Origin: Escherichia coli
GTDB lineage: Bacteria > Pseudomonadota > Gammaproteobacteria > Enterobacterales > Enterobacteriaceae
Direction: 5' to 3' (one strand)
DNA length: 31,100 bases
NCBI RefSeq assembly: GCF_003334765.1
Contig: NZ_QOWT01000040.1
Shown here in pieces: positions 75 through 16,220 of this stretch (positions are counted from its first letter, which is position 1; the number at the start of each line of letters is the position of its first letter). The notes below the pieces were generated by a model. That model saw only the letters and a list, made by a program, of their open reading frames with translations, was not told the origin of the DNA and did not search any database. The position numbers and the translations under genes were made by a program.

Positions 75-130
75 TTAGTCGCGCGCTGAATGGAATTTAC
101 GCCTCTTTGGAAACATCTGATTGGGGAATA

Positions 131-487
131 ATGAAGTTATTTGAGGATTTAGCATATAGAAATTATAAGTCAAGCGCATGGTCCGCTATGCTAAGAAATA
201 AATTAAGATTGAGAATGGACGATAAGCTTGATGAAAAGATAATTTCAATAATTAATGAGAAAGAGCTTGGTAAAAAGTTTTATAGAATTGACAGAGATCG
301 TTTGTTATCGTTAATGTTAGATTATAATATTGATATACCAATTAATCTTAATAATATAATTTACCTTTGTAATTATTTTTTCATAAAATCTACGGAGCTT
401 CAGGATATAGCCCCTGCTTTAATAATGAAAAAGCTTACAGATGCTGATGAAAAATTCAATAAAAATACTATTTTAGCATCTAAATAA
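131..487 (+). CDS. hypothetical protein, 118 aa from ATG 131 (TTG 107 gives the 126-aa ORF)
   Basis: Very AT-rich ORF with no motif I recognise. The same frame stays open leftwards across the IS5 junction to a stop at 29-31, so this may be the 3' part of a gene split by IS5. A hairpin follows the stop codon. Confidence 0.45.
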   Translation: MKLFEDLAYRNYKSSAWSAMLRNKLRLRMDDKLDEKIISIINEKELGKKFYRIDRDRLLSLMLDYNIDIPINLNNIIYLCNYFFIKSTELQDIAPALIMKKLTDADEKFNKNTILASK

Positions 488-886: not shown

Positions 887-1539
887 CTATAATAAAAAAT
901 CAATTAATTATTTTAAAAGTATTAAGCAAGAGCCTATTGACATTCGTAAAATAAAAGTTATTTTTAATGTATGCCATAAATAAAAAGTTTTATGTCATAT
1001 GTATCCTGCACTATGTGCAGTTAATGTGCCACTTGTCCCATATATGGGAATATTGGAAAGGTTACTTTGTTTTGAAGTAGCCTTTCGTCCTTCAATATTC
1101 ACGATTACTTATTGCTATTACCAAGTCCAGTCGAATCGAAGAACATCTTTTATCTGAAACGACTCCTAATACCAGGTTGAAGCCACAATATCTCTCGCAT
1201 AAGTAGACCAAAGAAAAATTATGATATTAACTATGTGATTTTTTTTAGTGTTAAGTTGAATAATTATATACTGGAGAGTTTTCTGTACACTACCAATTGC
1301 TGGTTCATCTGTTCTGCCGCTGATGTTTCTGACTAATCTCCCGGTGACACAGAACTGTCCCTCTCTACCAGCCTTTATTCGACTCAATGTCCGGCTGCTG
1401 ATACGCAGTTATCCCTTCGTATCAATGACTGACTCTTAAACGCAATGCTTTGGTTGCTGGCGTATCTGACAGCTTCTTCGGCGTGAAGGTCGTTGTGTAA
1501 GTATACTTCTTGGTTTATTTAGGCTATATAAAACCATGA

Positions 1540-2436
1540 CTATGACTGGCTGTTTTCAGTAAGAGTCTTATCATCCAAAGAATTTATTCTAGAAATTCTT
1601 TTTAACTCATTAAGATAATCAACCTCGTTTTCTAAGAACCAATGAAGAACTTTAGAGTTGCCAAGTAATTTATTAATATATGACTGGATTATAACGAATT
1701 TCAACATATCTGAACCATACTCGGTTTGAAGTTTTTTCGTTTCTTCCGAAGTTGTTGCCATTTCTTGTTCCAGACGAAGTATGGTTTTTTTTATGTCCTT
1801 TTTATAGGGAGTGTTTTTCCCTTTATTTACTATCATCGATGACGGTGTTGCATCCAAGATGCTCATTGCAAATTTTTTACTATAATTATCAAAATTAATC
1901 ATTGTACCGACTGCTTCAATTTGACGAATTGGCTTCATTTTCCTCAAAACGTCAAATGTAGCCTTAGGTATAGGTTTATCAGAAAGTTTCGCAATTACAC
2001 TTGGATCTATGCCGTTCATCACATTAGCTTTATCTTTTATGGCATCAACAGATATGCCCAAAGCAGCACTAAGTTTTTCAATTGATACTTTTGCCAGAGA
2101 CTTAATTATCATTCTATGTTCTTCAACTACATTTATATGATTCACTTGTTTGTTAGGAGTGAAAGCATCATCTATGCTCGAAAGTATACATGGAGCTTTT
2201 TCTATATCTAAGTCTTTTAAAGCCTCAACCCTTAAATGGCCATCAAGTATCTTAGTGACATCTTTATCTTTGTCATAGAATACTATTATTGGTTCAATAA
2301 TACCCAAGCTTTCGATAGAGGTAACTATTTGATGATATTTATGGCTTCGCTTTACGTTTTCTAATAATTCCTTAGATGGAATTAACTTATTAGTTTCCAG
2401 GTAAATAAAATTTTTGCCAAAACGTATCTGAATCAT
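1540..2436 (-). CDS. ParB/Srx N-terminal domain protein B (298 aa), third gene of the triad
   Basis: ParB-like motifs: SIESLGIIEPIIV (compare GLLQPIxV), ILDGHLRVEAL (a D-G-x-x-R patch at residues 65-69) and an HTH-like IEKLSAALGISVDAIKDKANVM. Its ATG shares ATGA (2433-2436) with the upstream stop. An AGAGGT Shine-Dalgarno sits 6 nt upstream. Confidence 0.8.
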   Translation of the reverse strand: MIQIRFGKNFIYLETNKLIPSKELLENVKRSHKYHQIVTSIESLGIIEPIIVFYDKDKDVTKILDGHLRVEALKDLDIEKAPCILSSIDDAFTPNKQVNHINVVEEHRMIIKSLAKVSIEKLSAALGISVDAIKDKANVMNGIDPSVIAKLSDKPIPKATFDVLRKMKPIRQIEAVGTMINFDNYSKKFAMSILDATPSSMIVNKGKNTPYKKDIKKTILRLEQEMATTSEETKKLQTEYGSDMLKFVIIQSYINKLLGNSKVLHWFLENEVDYLNELKRISRINSLDDKTLTENSQS

Positions 2437-3329
2437 TTTGATACCTCTTTGTTTACTGGGTTTAATATCTGAGATGGTAGTTCTGAAAGATTCTCTTGTT
2501 CAAGTATATTTTGAAAGCTTTTATTCATCATTATGATGTTAAAAATCTCATTTATTATTAGTAGATTGGTTTTTATAAATTTCGAGTTGTTATAAACAGA
2601 TTTATGTTCAGCGATACTATTTTCATAAAGCTCAATCAACTCCTCTGCAGTCATCCTTTTTGATGGTTTGTGATAATAAAATCCGGCTGCTTTTGCACCT
2701 TTATTCCCAACTGTTCTTTGATTTAGAATGTATTTTATCTTTATAATGTCCCGACTTTTTATTAATTTTTTATCATATGCTTCGGTAAGAATATCTTGTG
2801 CTTCCTCAGTTTCACATCTTGCAAATTGCACTGCGAGATACAGAGGCAAATTACCCCGTTCGACTGCTGAGAGAAGTTTATGCTCTCCCTTATCAAGAAG
2901 CATATTAATACTGCTCACCCAGTTCGATGAATATCCAGTAATCTCACTTATTTCGGAGTCTGAAAGTCCTCTGATTTTCATGTCTTTAATCACCTGTAAT
3001 AACTCATTAGAACGTGGTCTTCTCCTTGCAATGTTTTCAACTAAACTCATAACGTAAGCATCTTCTTCTGATACATCTCTTATAATTGCTGGAATAATAG
3101 TTTCACCTAATGCAACAAGAGCCTCTATTCTCCCTTGACCACAAATTAAAGCATATTTGAAATCGTCTTCATCAATAGCTCTTACGCTTATAGGCTTGCT
3201 TAATCCTCTTTTTTTTATGCTTTCCTTTATTTCTTCATGCACTACCTTATTTCTTGTTCGTGGGTTAAGAAATTTTATTTTTGCAATCTCAATTTGAATT
3301 ATTGGGAATTCATTTTTTTCAGGCAGCAT
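2433..3329 (-). CDS. ParB-like N-terminal + HTH domain protein A (298 aa), second gene of the triad
   Basis: Motifs: FLNPRTRN, GLSKPISVRAI and ICGQGRIEAL (a reduced GxxR arginine patch at residues 64-67). SLVENIARRRPRSNELLQVIKDMKIRGLSDSEISEITGYSSNWVSSINMLL parallels the ParB ENLQR...HTH segment. The C-terminal ~120 aa is unrecognised. A GAGGGA Shine-Dalgarno sits 5 nt before ATG 3327-3329. The start overlaps the recombinase stop by 11 nt. Confidence 0.8.
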   Translation of the reverse strand: MLPEKNEFPIIQIEIAKIKFLNPRTRNKVVHEEIKESIKKRGLSKPISVRAIDEDDFKYALICGQGRIEALVALGETIIPAIIRDVSEEDAYVMSLVENIARRRPRSNELLQVIKDMKIRGLSDSEISEITGYSSNWVSSINMLLDKGEHKLLSAVERGNLPLYLAVQFARCETEEAQDILTEAYDKKLIKSRDIIKIKYILNQRTVGNKGAKAAGFYYHKPSKRMTAEELIELYENSIAEHKSVYNNSKFIKTNLLIINEIFNIIMMNKSFQNILEQENLSELPSQILNPVNKEVSK

Positions 3330-4875
3330 ATAGTTCCCTCACTTTCATGCGAGTAATAATTTGTAGAAATTTATCAAGATTATCAAATCTATAGAGATCT
3401 AACCGAATGTTGTTTGTTTCCATCATACACATTTTACTATATTCGTTTTCAATCTTTGGTATGATATAAAAATCAAGAGGTGAAATATTTTGTGAATTCA
3501 TTCGTATAACAATTGTTATGTCTGCTTTCTGTGAGTTATCAAACCGGACTTTCCATCTAAGTTTACCTGATTTCATATGTATGCATTTAGTAACAAGGAC
3601 GGAAATTAAAAACTCATCATTGATGTAAAGCATTGGGTAATATTTATACTCGTCTATATGACAGTTACTTTTTAATATTTCGCCCTTAAAATCCTCAATT
3701 ATCTCTGAGTAAAATGATCTTAGTGCTTCATTTATTTGGAGATAGCTGTAATCATGTTCTGGCTTATAACCAATCAAAGTATATGCTCTTAAAAGACCAC
3801 CAAATCGGGTTCTATAAACAGAAGATGAAGGGCCTGTATCATCTTCATCAATGATAAAGCCTGATAGTTTTCCATTAGATTCTAATTTTTCTTTTAGCTT
3901 TTCTAATAGATCTTCATTAGTCAAATGAATGGATCGGAGCTGAATTATTTCTTGAGCTTTATTATATTTTTTCTTTGAAATAATTGGTTTATATGCCTTG
4001 TCACATCTAATCCATTCATGTTTGGGGTTTTTTACAAGCTTACTTTTTAGTTTAGATGAGGTTTTGTTATATATGTTGTTTCCAATATATTTTTCATTTG
4101 TCAAAATTTGATGTATTTTTGCACGAGTCCATGATGTTCCATTTTCTGCAGGTATGCTCTGTTCATTTAATCTCTCAGCAATAATGAATTCTGGGACGTT
4201 ACTATCTATAAAGAGATCATAGATTCTATTTACAATTTTTATTTCATTTTTTGGTCCCGGAATTAATATTACCCTATCTGTTTGAATACTCTTTCTTTTG
4301 CGGAAATTCAATATTTCTTTAGCTATGCCATTTTCGTCTACTAAAAGACGTCTCAGCCCATAACCAGCCATACCGCCTTGATGATAACCAAGCTTTATTA
4401 AATTTACTTGCCCTATAAATACCTTTTCAGATAGATTCCTGCTGTGATATGCAGCACTTGATCTTTTTATATTCAGTATAACAGAGGACTCTAAAGGGAA
4501 ATCTTTAGTGGGTATAGGTTCGGAACAATATATAAGATCTACACCATTTCTTTCAAATAGAAAGGAATAATATGCAGCTTCATCACTATTTTGAAAACGA
4601 CCAAAACGGCTCACATCATAAAATAATACAGCCTGTATATCTATTTTCTTTTGTTCTACATCGCTAAGTAACTGCTGCAAAGAATGCCTGCCTACGATAC
4701 TGACTCCGCTCTTACCTGCATCATCGTAGGTATAAGCGATTTCCATATTGTTCTTTTCAGCATAATCTTTGATATATTCAGACTGATTATGTAAAGAATA
4801 TTGCTGATGGTCGGTAGACATCCTCAAGTACTGTGCGACCCTAACTCTATGATTTTTTTCATTTCCGCTAGCCAT
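3319..4875 (-). CDS. large serine recombinase family protein, 518 aa from ATG 4875 (ORF opens at TTG 4881)
   Basis: Resolvase catalytic-domain motifs: YLRMSTDHQ (the nucleophile Ser context), DAGKSG and VSRFGR. Recombinase-domain motif: WTRAKIHQILTNEKYIGN. No CxxC pair occurs anywhere in the protein, so no zinc ribbon is apparent. A GAGG sits 8 nt before ATG 4873-4875. Confidence 0.85.
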   Translation of the reverse strand: MASGNEKNHRVRVAQYLRMSTDHQQYSLHNQSEYIKDYAEKNNMEIAYTYDDAGKSGVSIVGRHSLQQLLSDVEQKKIDIQAVLFYDVSRFGRFQNSDEAAYYSFLFERNGVDLIYCSEPIPTKDFPLESSVILNIKRSSAAYHSRNLSEKVFIGQVNLIKLGYHQGGMAGYGLRRLLVDENGIAKEILNFRKRKSIQTDRVILIPGPKNEIKIVNRIYDLFIDSNVPEFIIAERLNEQSIPAENGTSWTRAKIHQILTNEKYIGNNIYNKTSSKLKSKLVKNPKHEWIRCDKAYKPIISKKKYNKAQEIIQLRSIHLTNEDLLEKLKEKLESNGKLSGFIIDEDDTGPSSSVYRTRFGGLLRAYTLIGYKPEHDYSYLQINEALRSFYSEIIEDFKGEILKSNCHIDEYKYYPMLYINDEFLISVLVTKCIHMKSGKLRWKVRFDNSQKADITIVIRMNSQNISPLDFYIIPKIENEYSKMCMMETNNIRLDLYRFDNLDKFLQIITRMKVRELYAA

Positions 4876-5157
4876 GCACAAAACCTCATGGATGATTCAA
4901 TACAATGTAGAGGATAAAATTGATCAAATTTTAACCGAATTCAACTGTTTTATCATTGATTAGAGCGAATTTGGTAGTTCTTCGAGGTGTATGATAATCG
5001 AGAAGAGATGTGAATTATTTAGCTGATATGACCGACAGCTTTCGTTATGTGGCCTCAAGGTACCCATTTGTAAATGGCTATGCTTAGTCCACATAGGTTA
5101 ATGGTGTGATCATTAATTCTTCAAATAAATCAAGATAGTTAACCCATCATGGAAGAG

Positions 5158-6387
5158 TTATGCGGCAATAACTTTGTATTTTTGAGACGAAACATAGTCA
5201 CTCCACCATTGCATGAGAACCACACGTTCTGTGAGATACTCTGCACGATTGTAGGCTGCAATTATTTCATCTTTTTTCGAGTGGGCAAGGGCGGCTTCTA
5301 AGACATCAGTTCTAAACTTGCCACACTCCTCAGCCGCCGTTCTAGCGATTGATCGCATACCATGAGCTACAAGCTCACCTCCGAAGCCCATACGGATTAT
5401 AGCCGCATTAGCTGTTTGTTCATGCATGTGATTGAGTGGAGCTTTGATACTGGGAAAAACCCACTCTCTATGCCCGCTGATGGCTTTCATTGAATCCAAG
5501 ACTCGCAAAGATTCTTTGCTCAGTGGAACTTTGTGAGGCTTCTTCATTTTCATAAACTCCGCCGGGATGTTCCACATGCTGGTTTCTATATCAATATCTG
5601 ACCATCTTGTGCGAACAGCTTCACCAGGGCGAACCCATGTGAGAAGTTGCCACTCAATCAGTAGCCTTGTTTCTAAACGGATAGAAGCATTGTTTAGAGC
5701 AACCAGGAAGCGGGGGAGTTCGGAAGGGGGTAATGCTGGCATATTCTGTTTTTTTGGCTTGCTGAACCGTTGCCCCAGGTTGTCAGCCGGATTGAATTCT
5801 ATGAGTTCTTCTGTTGCTGCATAGCGGAAAATTTCATTCAGGCGGGATATGACGCGGCGAAGTGTTTCAAGGACACCTCGTTTTTCTATGGGGTCTAAAT
5901 GCTGTTTAAGCATTTTAGGGCGAATCTCCTTAATGGGGGTATCACCCAACGTTGGAAAGATATTTCTCTCTAGGCTTCGCCAGATGTCGTTAGCATGATC
6001 CTGGGAGATGCCTGACGTTTTGACTTTCTCATCAAGCCACTTCTTGGCTACTGCTTGAAATGTATGTTCCGTTGCATCCTTAAGGGCATTGGCTTTGTGG
6101 GTGTTATGAATTTGTGGGTCTATACCATTTGCAAGCAACGACAAGTACTCATCACGTAAAGCTCGTGCCTTCGCAAGTGTAAGGTGAGGATAGGTTCCTA
6201 AGCTCACCTTAGTTCGCTTTTTGGTCACAGGCACTGCATATCTGAAATACCAATTTTTCTTTCCTCCCTTCGCTAAGGGGGCGATTCGCAGGAGCAAACC
6301 ATCGCCGTCAAAAAGGTTAACCTCTTTCTCGGCAGGTTTGGTGCTTTTGATTTCAGTGTCAGTGAGCTTCTTAGCGATTTTTGCCAT
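5158..6387 (-). CDS. int: P4/IntA-family tyrosine integrase, 409 aa from ATG 6387
   Basis: The N-terminus MAKIAKKLTDTEIKSTKP...FDGDGLLLRI is typical of P4-type integrases. Catalytic-region motifs: TWVRPGEA, HGMRSIART, LAH and AAYNRAEY. It lies directly next to the 3' end of ssrA. The 457-aa ORF extension to 6531 is rejected because it runs through the ssrA terminator hairpin, and a GAGGG Shine-Dalgarno precedes ATG 6385-6387. Confidence 0.9.
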   Translation of the reverse strand: MAKIAKKLTDTEIKSTKPAEKEVNLFDGDGLLLRIAPLAKGGKKNWYFRYAVPVTKKRTKVSLGTYPHLTLAKARALRDEYLSLLANGIDPQIHNTHKANALKDATEHTFQAVAKKWLDEKVKTSGISQDHANDIWRSLERNIFPTLGDTPIKEIRPKMLKQHLDPIEKRGVLETLRRVISRLNEIFRYAATEELIEFNPADNLGQRFSKPKKQNMPALPPSELPRFLVALNNASIRLETRLLIEWQLLTWVRPGEAVRTRWSDIDIETSMWNIPAEFMKMKKPHKVPLSKESLRVLDSMKAISGHREWVFPSIKAPLNHMHEQTANAAIIRMGFGGELVAHGMRSIARTAAEECGKFRTDVLEAALAHSKKDEIIAAYNRAEYLTERVVLMQWWSDYVSSQKYKVIAA

Positions 6388-6483
6388 GTTTGGGACCCTC
6401 ATGTTTTGGACCCTTTGTGTTGGGTCCCAAAAAGGGTGCCATAACGAGTAGATTCTAGCAATTCTCGGTAGACTACTATAGAC

Positions 6484-6520
6484 GTAAAAAAGCCCGCAAG
6501 GCTGGTTCCATGCGGGCTTG
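6484..6520 (-). terminator. rho-independent terminator downstream of ssrA, on the island side
   Basis: 9-bp stem AAGCCCGCA (6490-6498) / TGCGGGCTT (6511-6519). On the minus strand the hairpin is followed by TTTTTT. Confidence 0.7.
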
Positions 6521-6553
6521 ATAGACTTCACTGAACTTCAATATATCAAAAAT

Positions 6554-6916
6554 TGGTGGAGCTGGCGGGAGTTGAACCCGCGTCCGAAATTCCTACATCC
6601 TCGGTACTACATGCTTAGTCAGTCTTTACATTCGCTTGCCAGCTGCGGACGGACACGCCACTAACAAACTAGCCTGATTAAGTTTTAACGCTTCAACCCC
6701 AGGCAGGGCTTCCACGCGATCTCTTTTGGGTTTGACCTCTCTTGATCCCCGTCCTAAGAGCGGAGGCTAGGGAGAGAGGGCTCTAAGCAGGTTATTAAGC
6801 TGCTAAAGCGTAGTTTTCGTCGTTTGCGACTATTTTTTGCGGCTTTTTACGAGGCCAACCGCCCCTCGGCATGCACCTTGGGTTTCGCAAATCCCGTCGA
6901 ATCCAGAATCAGCCCC
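6554..6916 (-). ncRNA. ssrA: tmRNA (SsrA), 363 nt
   Basis: The reverse complement reads GGGGCTGATTCTGGATTCGACGGGATTTGCG ... GGGTTCAACTCCCGCCAGCTCCACCA. The tag reading frame GCAAACGACGAAAACTACGCTTTAGCAGCTTAA (ANDENYALAA) is at 6795-6827. Confidence 0.97.
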
Positions 6917-7130: not shown

Positions 7131-7613
7131 TTAACGGTGGGCGTTTTTCATGATACGTGCTTTATCCACCTGCCATTCGCGCTCTTTGATATCTGAACGT
7201 TTATCGTGCTGTTTCTTACCTTTGGCGACGCCGATTTTCACTTTGCACCAGGCATTTTTCCAGTACAGGGAGAGCGCCACTACGGTATAGCCTTCTCGAT
7301 TGACGCGACCGTACAATGAGTCCAGTTCGCGCTGGTTGAGAAGTAACTTGCGGGTACGGGTAGGATCGCACACCACATGCGTGGAGGCCACGGCCATTGG
7401 CGTGATGTTAGCGCCAAACAGAAATGCCTCTCCGTCACGCAGAAGGACGTAGCTGTCGCTGATATTGGCTTTTCCTGCGCGCAGGGATTTAACTTCCCAG
7501 CCTTGCAGGGCAAGTCCCGCTTCGAACTCTTCTTCGATAAAGTATTCGTGACGGGCGCGCTTGTTAAGCGCGATGGTCGCTGAACCAGGTTTATGTGCTT
7601 TTTTCTTCGTCAT
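7131..7613 (-). CDS. smpB: SsrA-binding protein SmpB
   Basis: 160-aa ORF beginning [33 protein letters not shown]..., recognised as SmpB. Adjacent to ssrA as in K-12. Confidence 0.97.
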
Positions 7614-14713: not shown

Positions 14714-16075
14714 ATGTTTGATAATTTAACCGATCGTTTGTCGCGCACGCTGCGCAATATCAGTGGCCGTGGACGCCTCACTGAAGACAACGTAAAAGAT
14801 ACGCTGCGCGAAGTGCGCATGGCGCTGCTGGAGGCGGACGTAGCTCTGCCGGTAGTGCGTGAGTTTATCAATCGCGTAAAAGAGAAAGCGGTTGGTCATG
14901 AAGTTAATAAGAGCCTGACGCCGGGGCAGGAGTTCGTCAAAATAGTCCGTAACGAACTGGTTGCGGCGATGGGCGAAGAGAACCAGACCCTGAACCTGGC
15001 TGCGCAACCGCCTGCGGTCGTACTGATGGCGGGCCTGCAAGGTGCCGGTAAAACAACCAGCGTTGGTAAACTCGGTAAGTTCCTGCGCGAGAAGCACAAG
15101 AAGAAAGTGCTGGTGGTTTCTGCCGACGTTTATCGCCCGGCGGCAATCAAACAGCTTGAGACGCTGGCAGAGCAGGTGGGCGTTGATTTCTTCCCTTCTG
15201 ATGTTGGTCAGAAGCCGGTAGATATCGTTAACGCGGCGCTGAAAGAAGCCAAACTGAAATTCTACGACGTGCTGCTGGTGGATACCGCTGGTCGTCTGCA
15301 CGTTGACGAAGCGATGATGGACGAGATCAAACAAGTCCATGCGTCGATTAACCCGGTTGAAACCCTGTTTGTGGTTGACGCCATGACCGGTCAGGATGCG
15401 GCCAATACGGCAAAAGCATTCAATGAAGCGTTACCGCTTACCGGCGTAGTGTTGACCAAAGTGGACGGCGATGCCCGCGGCGGTGCGGCGCTCTCTATTC
15501 GTCACATCACTGGCAAACCGATCAAGTTCCTCGGTGTTGGCGAGAAAACTGAGGCGCTGGAGCCGTTCCATCCGGACCGCATCGCGTCGCGTATTCTCGG
15601 CATGGGCGACGTACTGTCGCTGATCGAAGATATCGAAAGCAAAGTTGACCGCGCGCAGGCAGAGAAATTAGCCAGCAAGCTGAAAAAAGGTGACGGCTTC
15701 GATCTCAACGACTTTCTTGAGCAGCTGCGCCAGATGAAAAATATGGGCGGCATGGCTAGTCTGATGGGCAAGCTGCCGGGCATGGGGCAGATCCCGGATA
15801 ACGTCAAGTCACAGATGGACGATAAAGTGCTGGTGCGTATGGAAGCCATCATCAACTCGATGACGATGAAAGAGCGCGCTAAGCCAGAAATCATCAAAGG
15901 TTCGCGTAAACGCCGTATTGCTGCCGGTTGCGGTATGCAGGTGCAGGACGTTAACCGTCTTCTGAAACAGTTCGACGACATGCAGCGCATGATGAAGAAA
16001 ATGAAGAAGGGCGGAATGGCGAAGATGATGAGAAGCATGAAGGGTATGATGCCCCCAGGCTTCCCTGGTCGCTAA
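14714..16075 (+). CDS. ffh: signal recognition particle protein Ffh
   Basis: 453 aa. GTPase motifs GLQGAGKTT and DTAGR, plus a Met-rich C-terminal M domain. Confidence 0.97.
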   Translation: MFDNLTDRLSRTLRNISGRGRLTEDNVKDTLREVRMALLEADVALPVVREFINRVKEKAVGHEVNKSLTPGQEFVKIVRNELVAAMGEENQTLNLAAQPPAVVLMAGLQGAGKTTSVGKLGKFLREKHKKKVLVVSADVYRPAAIKQLETLAEQVGVDFFPSDVGQKPVDIVNAALKEAKLKFYDVLLVDTAGRLHVDEAMMDEIKQVHASINPVETLFVVDAMTGQDAANTAKAFNEALPLTGVVLTKVDGDARGGAALSIRHITGKPIKFLGVGEKTEALEPFHPDRIASRILGMGDVLSLIEDIESKVDRAQAEKLASKLKKGDGFDLNDFLEQLRQMKNMGGMASLMGKLPGMGQIPDNVKSQMDDKVLVRMEAIINSMTMKERAKPEIIKGSRKRRIAAGCGMQVQDVNRLLKQFDDMQRMMKKMKKGGMAKMMRSMKGMMPPGFPGR

Positions 16076-16220
16076 TCGGCCTGGCTTGTTTGCCATTTTG
16101 GCACCGGGATGTGCTCGTCATCCTCACGTACTGCGTGTACGCTCCGGTGACTGCGCGCACTCCGGCACCAAACTGGCTGCACCGCCGACGGCCTTTTACA
16201 GCAGAGTTAGCAACTGTTGA

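Follow-up and report, generated by a model that had tools for sequence, protein, structure and literature searches.

Several large serine recombinases depend on small accessory proteins for directionality. The ParB fold, in turn, is able to bind CTP, ATP or GTP, and a recent preprint describes GxxR as a minimal P-motif and reports that a range of ParB-fold proteins need its arginine to bind nucleoside triphosphates (NTPs) (Kaljevic et al. 2025, bioRxiv 10.1101/2025.10.10.680097). With its partner BisC, the ParB-like CTP clamp BisD of ICEclc switches on transfer-competence genes from a distance (PMC12409273). Here we analysed a 31,100-nt stretch of an Escherichia coli chromosome (contig NZ_QOWT01000040.1 of assembly GCF_003334765.1, referred to as the window), in which two genes for ParB-like proteins, termed A and B, follow the gene for an atypical large serine recombinase, termed R. 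R, A and B are one translationally coupled three-gene operon (window 1540-4881), and we tentatively propose that A and B control the recombinase.

A three-gene operon of a recombinase and two ParB-like proteins

The original prediction, which was made from the letters of the window, described A and B as a paired arrangement of equally long, strongly diverged ParB-like paralogs without a ParA partner. Both 298-aa reading frames were confirmed (Table 1). The two genes are real, but they are not a standalone pair, because R always precedes them; R overlaps A by 11 nt and A overlaps B by 4 nt (ATGA). Gene order was counted in 80 fetched genome loci with enough upstream DNA, and in 80 out of 80 the three genes lie on one strand in the order R, A, B, abutting or overlapping. 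These loci belong to Enterobacterales and to Alpha-, Beta- and other Gammaproteobacteria, with a few metagenome-assembled genomes (MAGs) labelled otherwise. Precomputed Pfam labels gave the same order in Rhodovulum, Paraburkholderia, Geobacter and metagenome contigs, and it recurs on Pseudomonas and Agrobacterium megaplasmids (two copies examined). The system is widespread: searching one genome per species with an alignment of the B family returned at least 556 species with a B relative, and full-text literature searches found no publication on the triad.

The motifs named in the prediction were located in A (CGQGRIEA at residues 63-70, VENIARRRP from residue 97, a helix-turn-helix (HTH) segment from residue 121) and in B (DGHLRVEA at residues 65-72). 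Both proteins have a single-arginine Box II as claimed, since only the GxxR arginine, the second arginine of the canonical GERRxRA, is kept in GQGRIEA of A and GHLRVEA of B. Because C63, G64, G66, R67 and E69 are invariant within the A family and D65, G66, R69 and E71 within the B family, we regard these 'reduced' motifs as conserved variants and not as decay. A furthermore carries NPRxRN, a Box III (ENIARR) and a helical C-terminal half, and the ENxxR motif plus HTH ascribed to it is borne out by the invariant residues E98, N99 and R102 and by an HTH at 121-145. In Box III of B, Asn95 is kept, Glu is replaced by Pro or Tyr, and Arg is lost. Replacement of the Box III Glu in ParB blocks hydrolysis and not binding; by analogy, B may be a non-hydrolysing partner. 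For nucleotide specificity, neither sequence analysis nor AlphaFold 3 is a reliable predictor, according to the preprint cited above (bioRxiv 10.1101/2025.10.10.680097).

Both proteins have a ParB/Srx N-terminal fold followed by the HTH, and both have the architecture PF02195 (ParB_N) plus PF07506 (RepB), the two domains also carried by their homologs (362 found for A and 1373 for B). The Pfam scores differ between the two: A matches ParB_N with an E-value of 1.6e-13 (50.9 bits) and RepB only marginally (2.7e-7, 31.2 bits), and B matches RepB with 5.1e-24 (85.8 bits, cut-off 30) and ParB_N just under the cut-off of 26.3 (3.4e-5, 24.2 bits). Their equal length of 298 aa is lineage-specific; in other copies A measures 288-303 aa and B 297-310 aa. 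The strong divergence is real, with BLASTP aligning 63 aa only (30% identity, E 0.003), and the alignment between the family profiles has a probability of 95.6% (E 1e-8) and covers residues 8-146 in A and 8-141 in B. On this profile alignment, A and B are old, distant paralogs across the N-terminal domain and the HTH only.

In the AlphaFold2 (AF2) models, confidence is high (pLDDT 80-82) across the N-terminal domain, the HTH and a long helix near the C-terminus, which spans residues 228-267 in A and 213-259 in B. Fold matches were PadC, KorB, sulfiredoxin, the ParB of pNOB8, SbnI, SerK and Spo0J, and none of them provided a solved-structure analogue for the C-terminal halves. In sequence and fold combined, Spo0J, Noc, KorB and PadC are closest, followed by sulfiredoxin, SbnI and SerK. 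Of the families named in the original prediction, ParB, Noc and KorB were matched, and the suggested kinship with DndB and DUF262 found no support: neither Pfam nor NCBIfam gave such a hit at E<=0.1, and the genes stand in a recombinase operon and not in a dnd or restriction context. The DGHLR of B resembles the DGHxR class; the SerK and SbnI matches are weak.

R combines a resolvase catalytic domain (PF00239, 7.6e-22) with a recombinase domain (PF07508, 5.4e-22) and contains the motifs YLRMSTDHQ and SRFGR, so that the catalytic domain with its serine nucleophile and the recombinase domain that characterize large serine recombinases are both present. Its matches in the Protein Data Bank (PDB), TP901-1, TnpX and SprA, all end near residue ~325. 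The C-terminal ~195 aa had no match at all, including to a zinc ribbon (Zn_ribbon_recom) or a coiled coil, and residues 315-520 contain no CxxC pair. The triad recombinases form their own clade, scoring 400-1167 bits against the R of the window, compared with ~26 bits for other serine recombinases at the same loci.

Between alleles, dN/dS was 0.05-0.31 for all three genes; in the more diverged comparisons it was 0.05-0.07 for A and B and 0.11-0.18 for R. Judged by these ratios, R, A and B are under purifying selection.

Cassette ends, promoter palindrome and an RNA-like motif

Closely related copies have little in common beyond the cassette. Copies from Scandinavium and Erwinia (L015 and L017) share 3557 bp at 96.7% identity, from ~200 nt before R to 19 nt past B, and their flanks are unrelated; the pairs Yersinia/Rahnella (L018/L019) and Erwinia/MAG (L033/L030) likewise have homology in the cassette only. 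In Rhodobacterales, a common block extends from the ribosome-binding site of R to ~215 nt past B in at least 8 comparisons. Homology between the E. coli type and its diverged variant stops 51 nt past B and within the integrase gene, and homology of the window with L010 and L013 ends at 1489-1492. In these alignments, R-A-B behaves as a discrete, horizontally shuffled cassette of chromosomal islands.

A separate observation concerns a ~180-nt segment, which one Rhodobacterales genome (L066:17913-18100) carries beside tRNA-Ser, 7 kb downstream of the triad. Elsewhere it occurs 0.7-2 kb upstream of the triad with no tRNA (L053:6672-6858, L061:6697-6879, L087:5379-5554 and L047:11907-11998); it could be an att-arm or a backbone piece of a tRNA-Ser island.

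Divergent enterobacterial triads have in common the palindrome AAAATTGATCAATTTT, located between a -35-like box and the start of R. It is exact in L010, L013, L018, L019, L028 and L035 and near-exact in L020, L025, L030 and L033, covering Yersinia, Rahnella, Pantoea, Erwinia, Kluyvera and others. These 14-16 bp are kept although the triad proteins are just 40-57% identical, and the window contains one copy. The palindrome at 4917-4930 is the strongest candidate for an operator bound by A and/or B, or for the site at which they load.

The original prediction had offered the palindromes at 867-886, 1006-1020 and 1037-1048 as parS-like sites. We rejected them in this role because other copies of the triad that are intact and under selection lack the DNA in question. 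The first of them is a perfect 20-bp palindrome, CTTCGCTTGTACAAGCGAAG. In DNA that is likewise missing from other triad copies, a terminator-like hairpin with 12-bp arms (504-535) stands right after the RelA/SpoT-domain gene. Within the gene-free stretch 488-1539, repeats were only short and at chance level, and Rfam gave no match.

In related loci, a GC-rich element of ~136 nt follows B. In half of the genome loci (40 of 80), most of them alphaproteobacterial, it begins 1-30 nt past the B stop codon on the same strand. Between genera it keeps 80-95% identity, far more than the proteins do. RNAalifold predicted 33 pairs, 14 of them with compensatory changes. As a test set we used 88 further motif sequences from metagenome and IMG/VR contigs, collected by a sequence-pattern search and aligned by model fitting, which favours structure; in this alignment 98.1% of cells are paired, and double changes occur in 20 of the 32 pairs. 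None of 500 shuffles reached those values, slid controls paired at 22-45%, and the G-U pairs fit the coding strand only. Over 120 metagenome stretches carry the motif, as do 42 IMG/VR contigs. A B gene precedes it in 128 of the 149 copies that have 400 nt or more of upstream DNA, and is missing there in the other 21. The motif has no match in Rfam 15 and is a candidate new structured RNA family. It is absent from the E. coli window and from the enterobacterial and betaproteobacterial loci, and no second copy that might mark the opposite end of a mobile element was found. An origin as a tRNA or tmRNA fragment was considered and rejected, there being no Rfam or ARAGORN hit and no conserved 'CCA'.

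In the E. coli chromosome, the triad belongs to a low-GC island left of ssrA (31-36% GC compared with ~50% elsewhere). Proceeding from ssrA, the P4-type integrase, R, A and B lie on one strand and are followed by variable cargo. Of 5426 complete E. coli genomes, 656 have the triad, in every case on the chromosome and never on a plasmid. Among the E. coli matches listed, no ssrA-island integrase allele of at least 90% identity was seen without the triad. An empty site, with the same integrase and no triad, was accordingly not found among these matches; integrase alleles of 79-84% identity lack the triad and represent other island types. Beyond B, strain H3 carries the RelA/SpoT-domain gene, a relaxase and insertion sequence (IS) elements, PEC199 carries TIGR04141 with HxsABCD, and in the Enterobacter and Leclercia copies the DNA is unrelated. 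In BL21(DE3), the integrase and an intact triad (98.4% identical) are followed by IS1 and core genes, an island remnant that makes the system experimentally accessible.

In the window itself, ~1 kb without a convincing open reading frame (ORF; 488-1539) lies 3' of B, followed by the end of the RelA/SpoT-domain gene. The window holds only the C-terminal part of this gene, 107-487 (+), which a 470-aa hypothetical gene precedes (L001:13098-15415); this two-gene cargo could be a toxic small alarmone synthetase or a defence pair. In E. coli PEC199 (L010) and a Kluyvera genome (L013), fragments of P4-type integrases, on the same strand and with the N-terminus missing, flank the triad on both sides (L010:11712-11936 and 15685-16212; L013:65-670 and 4415-4627), which suggests a rearrangement between tandem islands. 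A sub-threshold Rfam match to the small RNA (sRNA) IsrM at window 6486-6563 (-), with 42 bits against a gathering score of 376, covers the ssrA 3' end and adjoining downstream DNA inside the longest integrase ORF.

Table 1. Positions of the operon, its putative control sites and neighbouring genes in the window, and of elements in related loci (L numbers)
Feature	Position	Strand	Remarks
R, atypical large serine recombinase	3319..4881 (TTG) or 4875 (RefSeq ATG)	(-)	520 or 518 aa
ParB-like A	2433..3329	(-)	298 aa; ParB_N + HTH
ParB-like B	1540..2436	(-)	298 aa; ParB/Srx domain + HTH + RepB-type half
Palindrome AAATTGATCAAATT	4917..4930	.	One mismatch from AAATTGATCAATTT; contains GATC (Dam site); overlaps promoter-like site
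Sigma-70-like promoter (ATGATA, 17 nt, TAAAAT)	4928..4956	(-)	Consensus match only; adjoins/overlaps palindrome
51-nt tail past B stop	1489..1539	(-)	Common to diverged island variants; holds 10-bp palindrome AAGTATACTT; homology ends
~136-nt motif, examples	L066:10891-11027, L090:10908-11043, L045:6939-7074	(+)	Outside the window
Small divergent gene, examples	L002:5041-5424, L004:5111-5470, L007:6106-6366, L253:4061-4414, L254:4083-4490	(-)	
P4-type tyrosine integrase, ssrA island	5158..6531	(-)	RefSeq product shorter, 409 aa
ssrA (tmRNA)	6554..6916	(-)	Island integration site
smpB	7131-7613	(-)	Chromosomal neighbour of ssrA

Proposed mechanism and alternative explanations

We propose, as a reading that falls somewhat short of probable, that R-A-B works as a recombination cassette complete in itself. 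A and B would jointly bind DNA under the control of a nucleotide switch, and this complex would both regulate its own operon and direct R. A would offer a full nucleotide pocket (GxxR with the Glu, Asn and Arg of Box III), and B a pocket with GxxR and Asn and no catalytic Glu; together they would make a nucleotide-switched DNA clamp, probably an A/B heteromer. A heterodimeric clamp is plausible, as the A and B genes always occur together, the start of one overlapping the stop of the other, and each model has the long C-terminal helix. The clamp would load at the palindrome overlapping the operon promoter and repress R-A-B, and its sliding or bridging in cis might license or target R. R appears to be without the zinc-ribbon/coiled-coil module that is the usual source of site choice and directionality, and A and B would supply this control. 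The reaction under control may excise, resolve or integrate the cassette or adjoining island DNA.

A broader claim, which we consider unlikely, is that the triad represents a new class of mobile recombination system, in which a heteromeric ParB-fold NTP clamp replaces the zinc-ribbon/coiled-coil module and sets the site and direction of R. In many alphaproteobacteria, the ~136-nt element, as structured RNA or folded single strand, would then be a further member of the system, perhaps belonging to the recombination site or serving as a guide or scaffold.

Several observations weigh against the proposed recombination cassette. The analysis identified neither recombination sites nor circular junctions nor empty sites, and no inverted repeats, terminal repeats or common target motif are obvious at the compared cassette ends. 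The E. coli junction to the variable cargo is not fixed, falling at window ~734 or 1489 depending on the comparison, and the right-hand boundary of L015 seems, read by eye, to be an IS256-like transposase gene. E. coli genomes contain one copy of the triad, at most two, so that recent transposition is not evident. The R-promoter palindrome was not seen in non-enteric triads, where a small divergent HTH-like gene is found instead. This gene (86-135 aa) lies upstream of R in ~30 of ~70 non-enterobacterial loci; its N-terminus (MSFPKKGK...) is conserved and its middle resembles an HTH, with a Pfam Cro/C1-type HTH in Geobacter only; the integrase occupies its position in the E. coli window. Finally, shortened alleles are frequent in the E. 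coli/Salmonella protein clusters (P0007, P0029, P0129 and P0139), with B of 245 aa (794 members) or 178 aa (386 members) and A of 224 aa (956 members) or 165 aa. The module seems to be dispensable or decaying in some lineages, or some of the shortened entries may be contig-end fragments.

Alternatively, the triad might act in defence against phages or plasmids, an explanation that is possible, weakly supported and in our judgement improbable. The ParB-like proteins would load on or sense foreign DNA, with the recombinase or an activity of the C-terminal domains as effector, or the cassette would toggle neighbouring defence genes. R-A-B moves as a discrete operon among unrelated islands, as defence systems do, and its neighbours at various loci include type I restriction-modification (R-M), AbiEi, a DISARM-like pair of DUF1156 and SNF2/PLD helicase, a WYL protein, HxsABCD with TIGR04141, RloB with an AAA ATPase, and the RelA/SpoT-domain gene. 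The E. coli triad adjoins the tmRNA-island integrase, and the position beside this integrase is a frequent hotspot for defence genes. However, type I R-M or DISARM-like neighbours were found at only 8 of ~72 non-redundant loci, and any tested defence-type gene at 14 of ~72, as counted with crude queries. No model of PADLOC-DB v2 matches R or A, and for B the only match is a weak one (E 3.8e-6), to a methyltransferase model at its ParB-like end. In E. coli, moreover, the triad is island backbone, always with one integrase allele, and it is the genes beyond that vary. Conservative site-specific recombination is an unlikely immune effector, and no inverted repeats marking an invertible switch were found next to the cassette. 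Nor is the triad a phage system: B relatives occur in 1 of 50,697 phage records, and PHROGs returned matches only to unknown-function and generic ParB-like families.

Still less probable, in our estimate, is a stability module for the excised or replicating form of an island or megaplasmid, in which R would resolve multimers and A and B would be centromere-binding proteins that use a host ParA or tether to the chromosome. In its favour, Pfam and NCBI give the names ParB_N and RepB, resolvase and partition pairs are common on plasmids, some copies reside on Sinorhizobium, Agrobacterium and Pseudomonas megaplasmids, and the island of E. coli H3 carries a relaxase and may be mobilisable. The absence of a ParA partner asserted by the original prediction was borne out, however: none is annotated in the island or in nine annotated contexts (Pfam), and no Soj-like ORF lies within 10 kb at 90 loci, a search made with an unverified Soj query and no positive control. 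Neither protein was placed in a plasmid RepB/ParB family with a ParA in cis. As a repABC RepB, A reached 37 bits against the TIGR03454 cut-off of 201.5 and 21 against 522 for PRK13866, through its N-terminal domain only, and B had no hit to either model. No repA or repC neighbours were seen in the island or in the two megaplasmid contexts; the two megaplasmid copies adjoin catabolic or sugar-transport genes, away from any annotated replication or partition genes. Only 103 of 72,556 plasmid records contain B relatives, mostly rhizobial megaplasmids and none enterobacterial, and in BL21(DE3) the intact triad sits in an island remnant with nothing to partition. A plasmid-type partition system was rejected on the missing ParA, the failed repABC model and this rarity on plasmids, and the 'partition protein' labels that A and B bear in hundreds of E. 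coli genomes are probably misleading. Separately, each of the Sinorhizobium meliloti pSym replicons (H66, H71-H76) has 2-3 B-like places, many in pieces and with no listed gene, which suggests multiple decayed B copies.

It is very improbable that the enterobacterial A and B are regulators or directionality factors of the neighbouring P4-type tyrosine integrase, with R as an unrelated passenger: the order integrase, R, A, B on one strand beside tmRNA or tRNA does recur from E. coli to Defluviicoccus (also in Rahnella, Pantoea, Novosphingobium, Sphingopyxis and Aureimonas), and no Xis/AlpA-type gene is annotated beside the integrase in the island of the window, but a tyrosine recombinase is present in the fetched flanks of only 13 of ~72 loci, whereas R is always there, and in Paraburkholderia the integrase is downstream of the triad on the opposite strand.

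Comparison with known systems

Among ParB-like regulators, KorB of IncP plasmids, a CTP-dependent clamp that represses together with KorA, resembles A and B in combining a ParB/Srx domain with an HTH and, as proposed for A and B, in being a regulator and not a segregation protein and in binding palindromic operators at promoters. KorB differs in having the full GERRxRA, in being encoded on a plasmid with IncC (ParA) and KorA, and in lacking both a recombinase partner and a second paralog; its C-terminal domain is also different, and A and B have no KorB-type Pfam hit. BisD is likewise an orphan ParB-like protein of an integrated mobile element, with a dedicated partner, BisC, and no ParA (PMC12409273). 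It differs in that BisC is no ParB paralog and the BisD operon is without a serine recombinase.

Spo0J and Noc are close in sequence, Spo0J (1vz0) matching the A profile with an E-value of 2.4e-19 and Noc (7ol9) the A and B profiles with 1.6e-15 and 1e-9, respectively, and the order of N-terminal domain and HTH is the same. Unlike canonical ParB and Noc, A and B retain only GxxR of Box II, with Glu in place of the third arginine, and B is without the Box III Glu and Arg. They have no ParA, their C-terminal half is of the Pfam RepB type, and they share an operon with a recombinase. The same architecture has been delineated as a ParB_N-RepB fusion class, common in bacteria and with its own Box I and Box II logos, in Kaljevic et al. 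2025 (bioRxiv 10.1101/2025.10.10.680097); the parts of that survey dealing with the class describe no function, recombinase linkage or paralog pairing.

On the recombinase side, R has the catalytic and recombinase domains of the large serine recombinases, represented with their accessory proteins by TP901-1 Int, TnpX, SPbeta SprA with SprB, and XisF with XisH and XisI. In contrast to them, R is without the zinc ribbon and coiled coil, and its accessory genes encode two ParB-fold HTH proteins of ~300 aa; ParB-fold HTH partners of a large serine recombinase are not described in the literature searched. If true, the proposed control by A and B accounts for the targeting of a large serine recombinase without the usual specificity module. 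ParB-fold switches act beyond segregation in KorB, BisD, Noc and VirB, and a partnership with a recombinase, if true, adds the control of DNA rearrangement.

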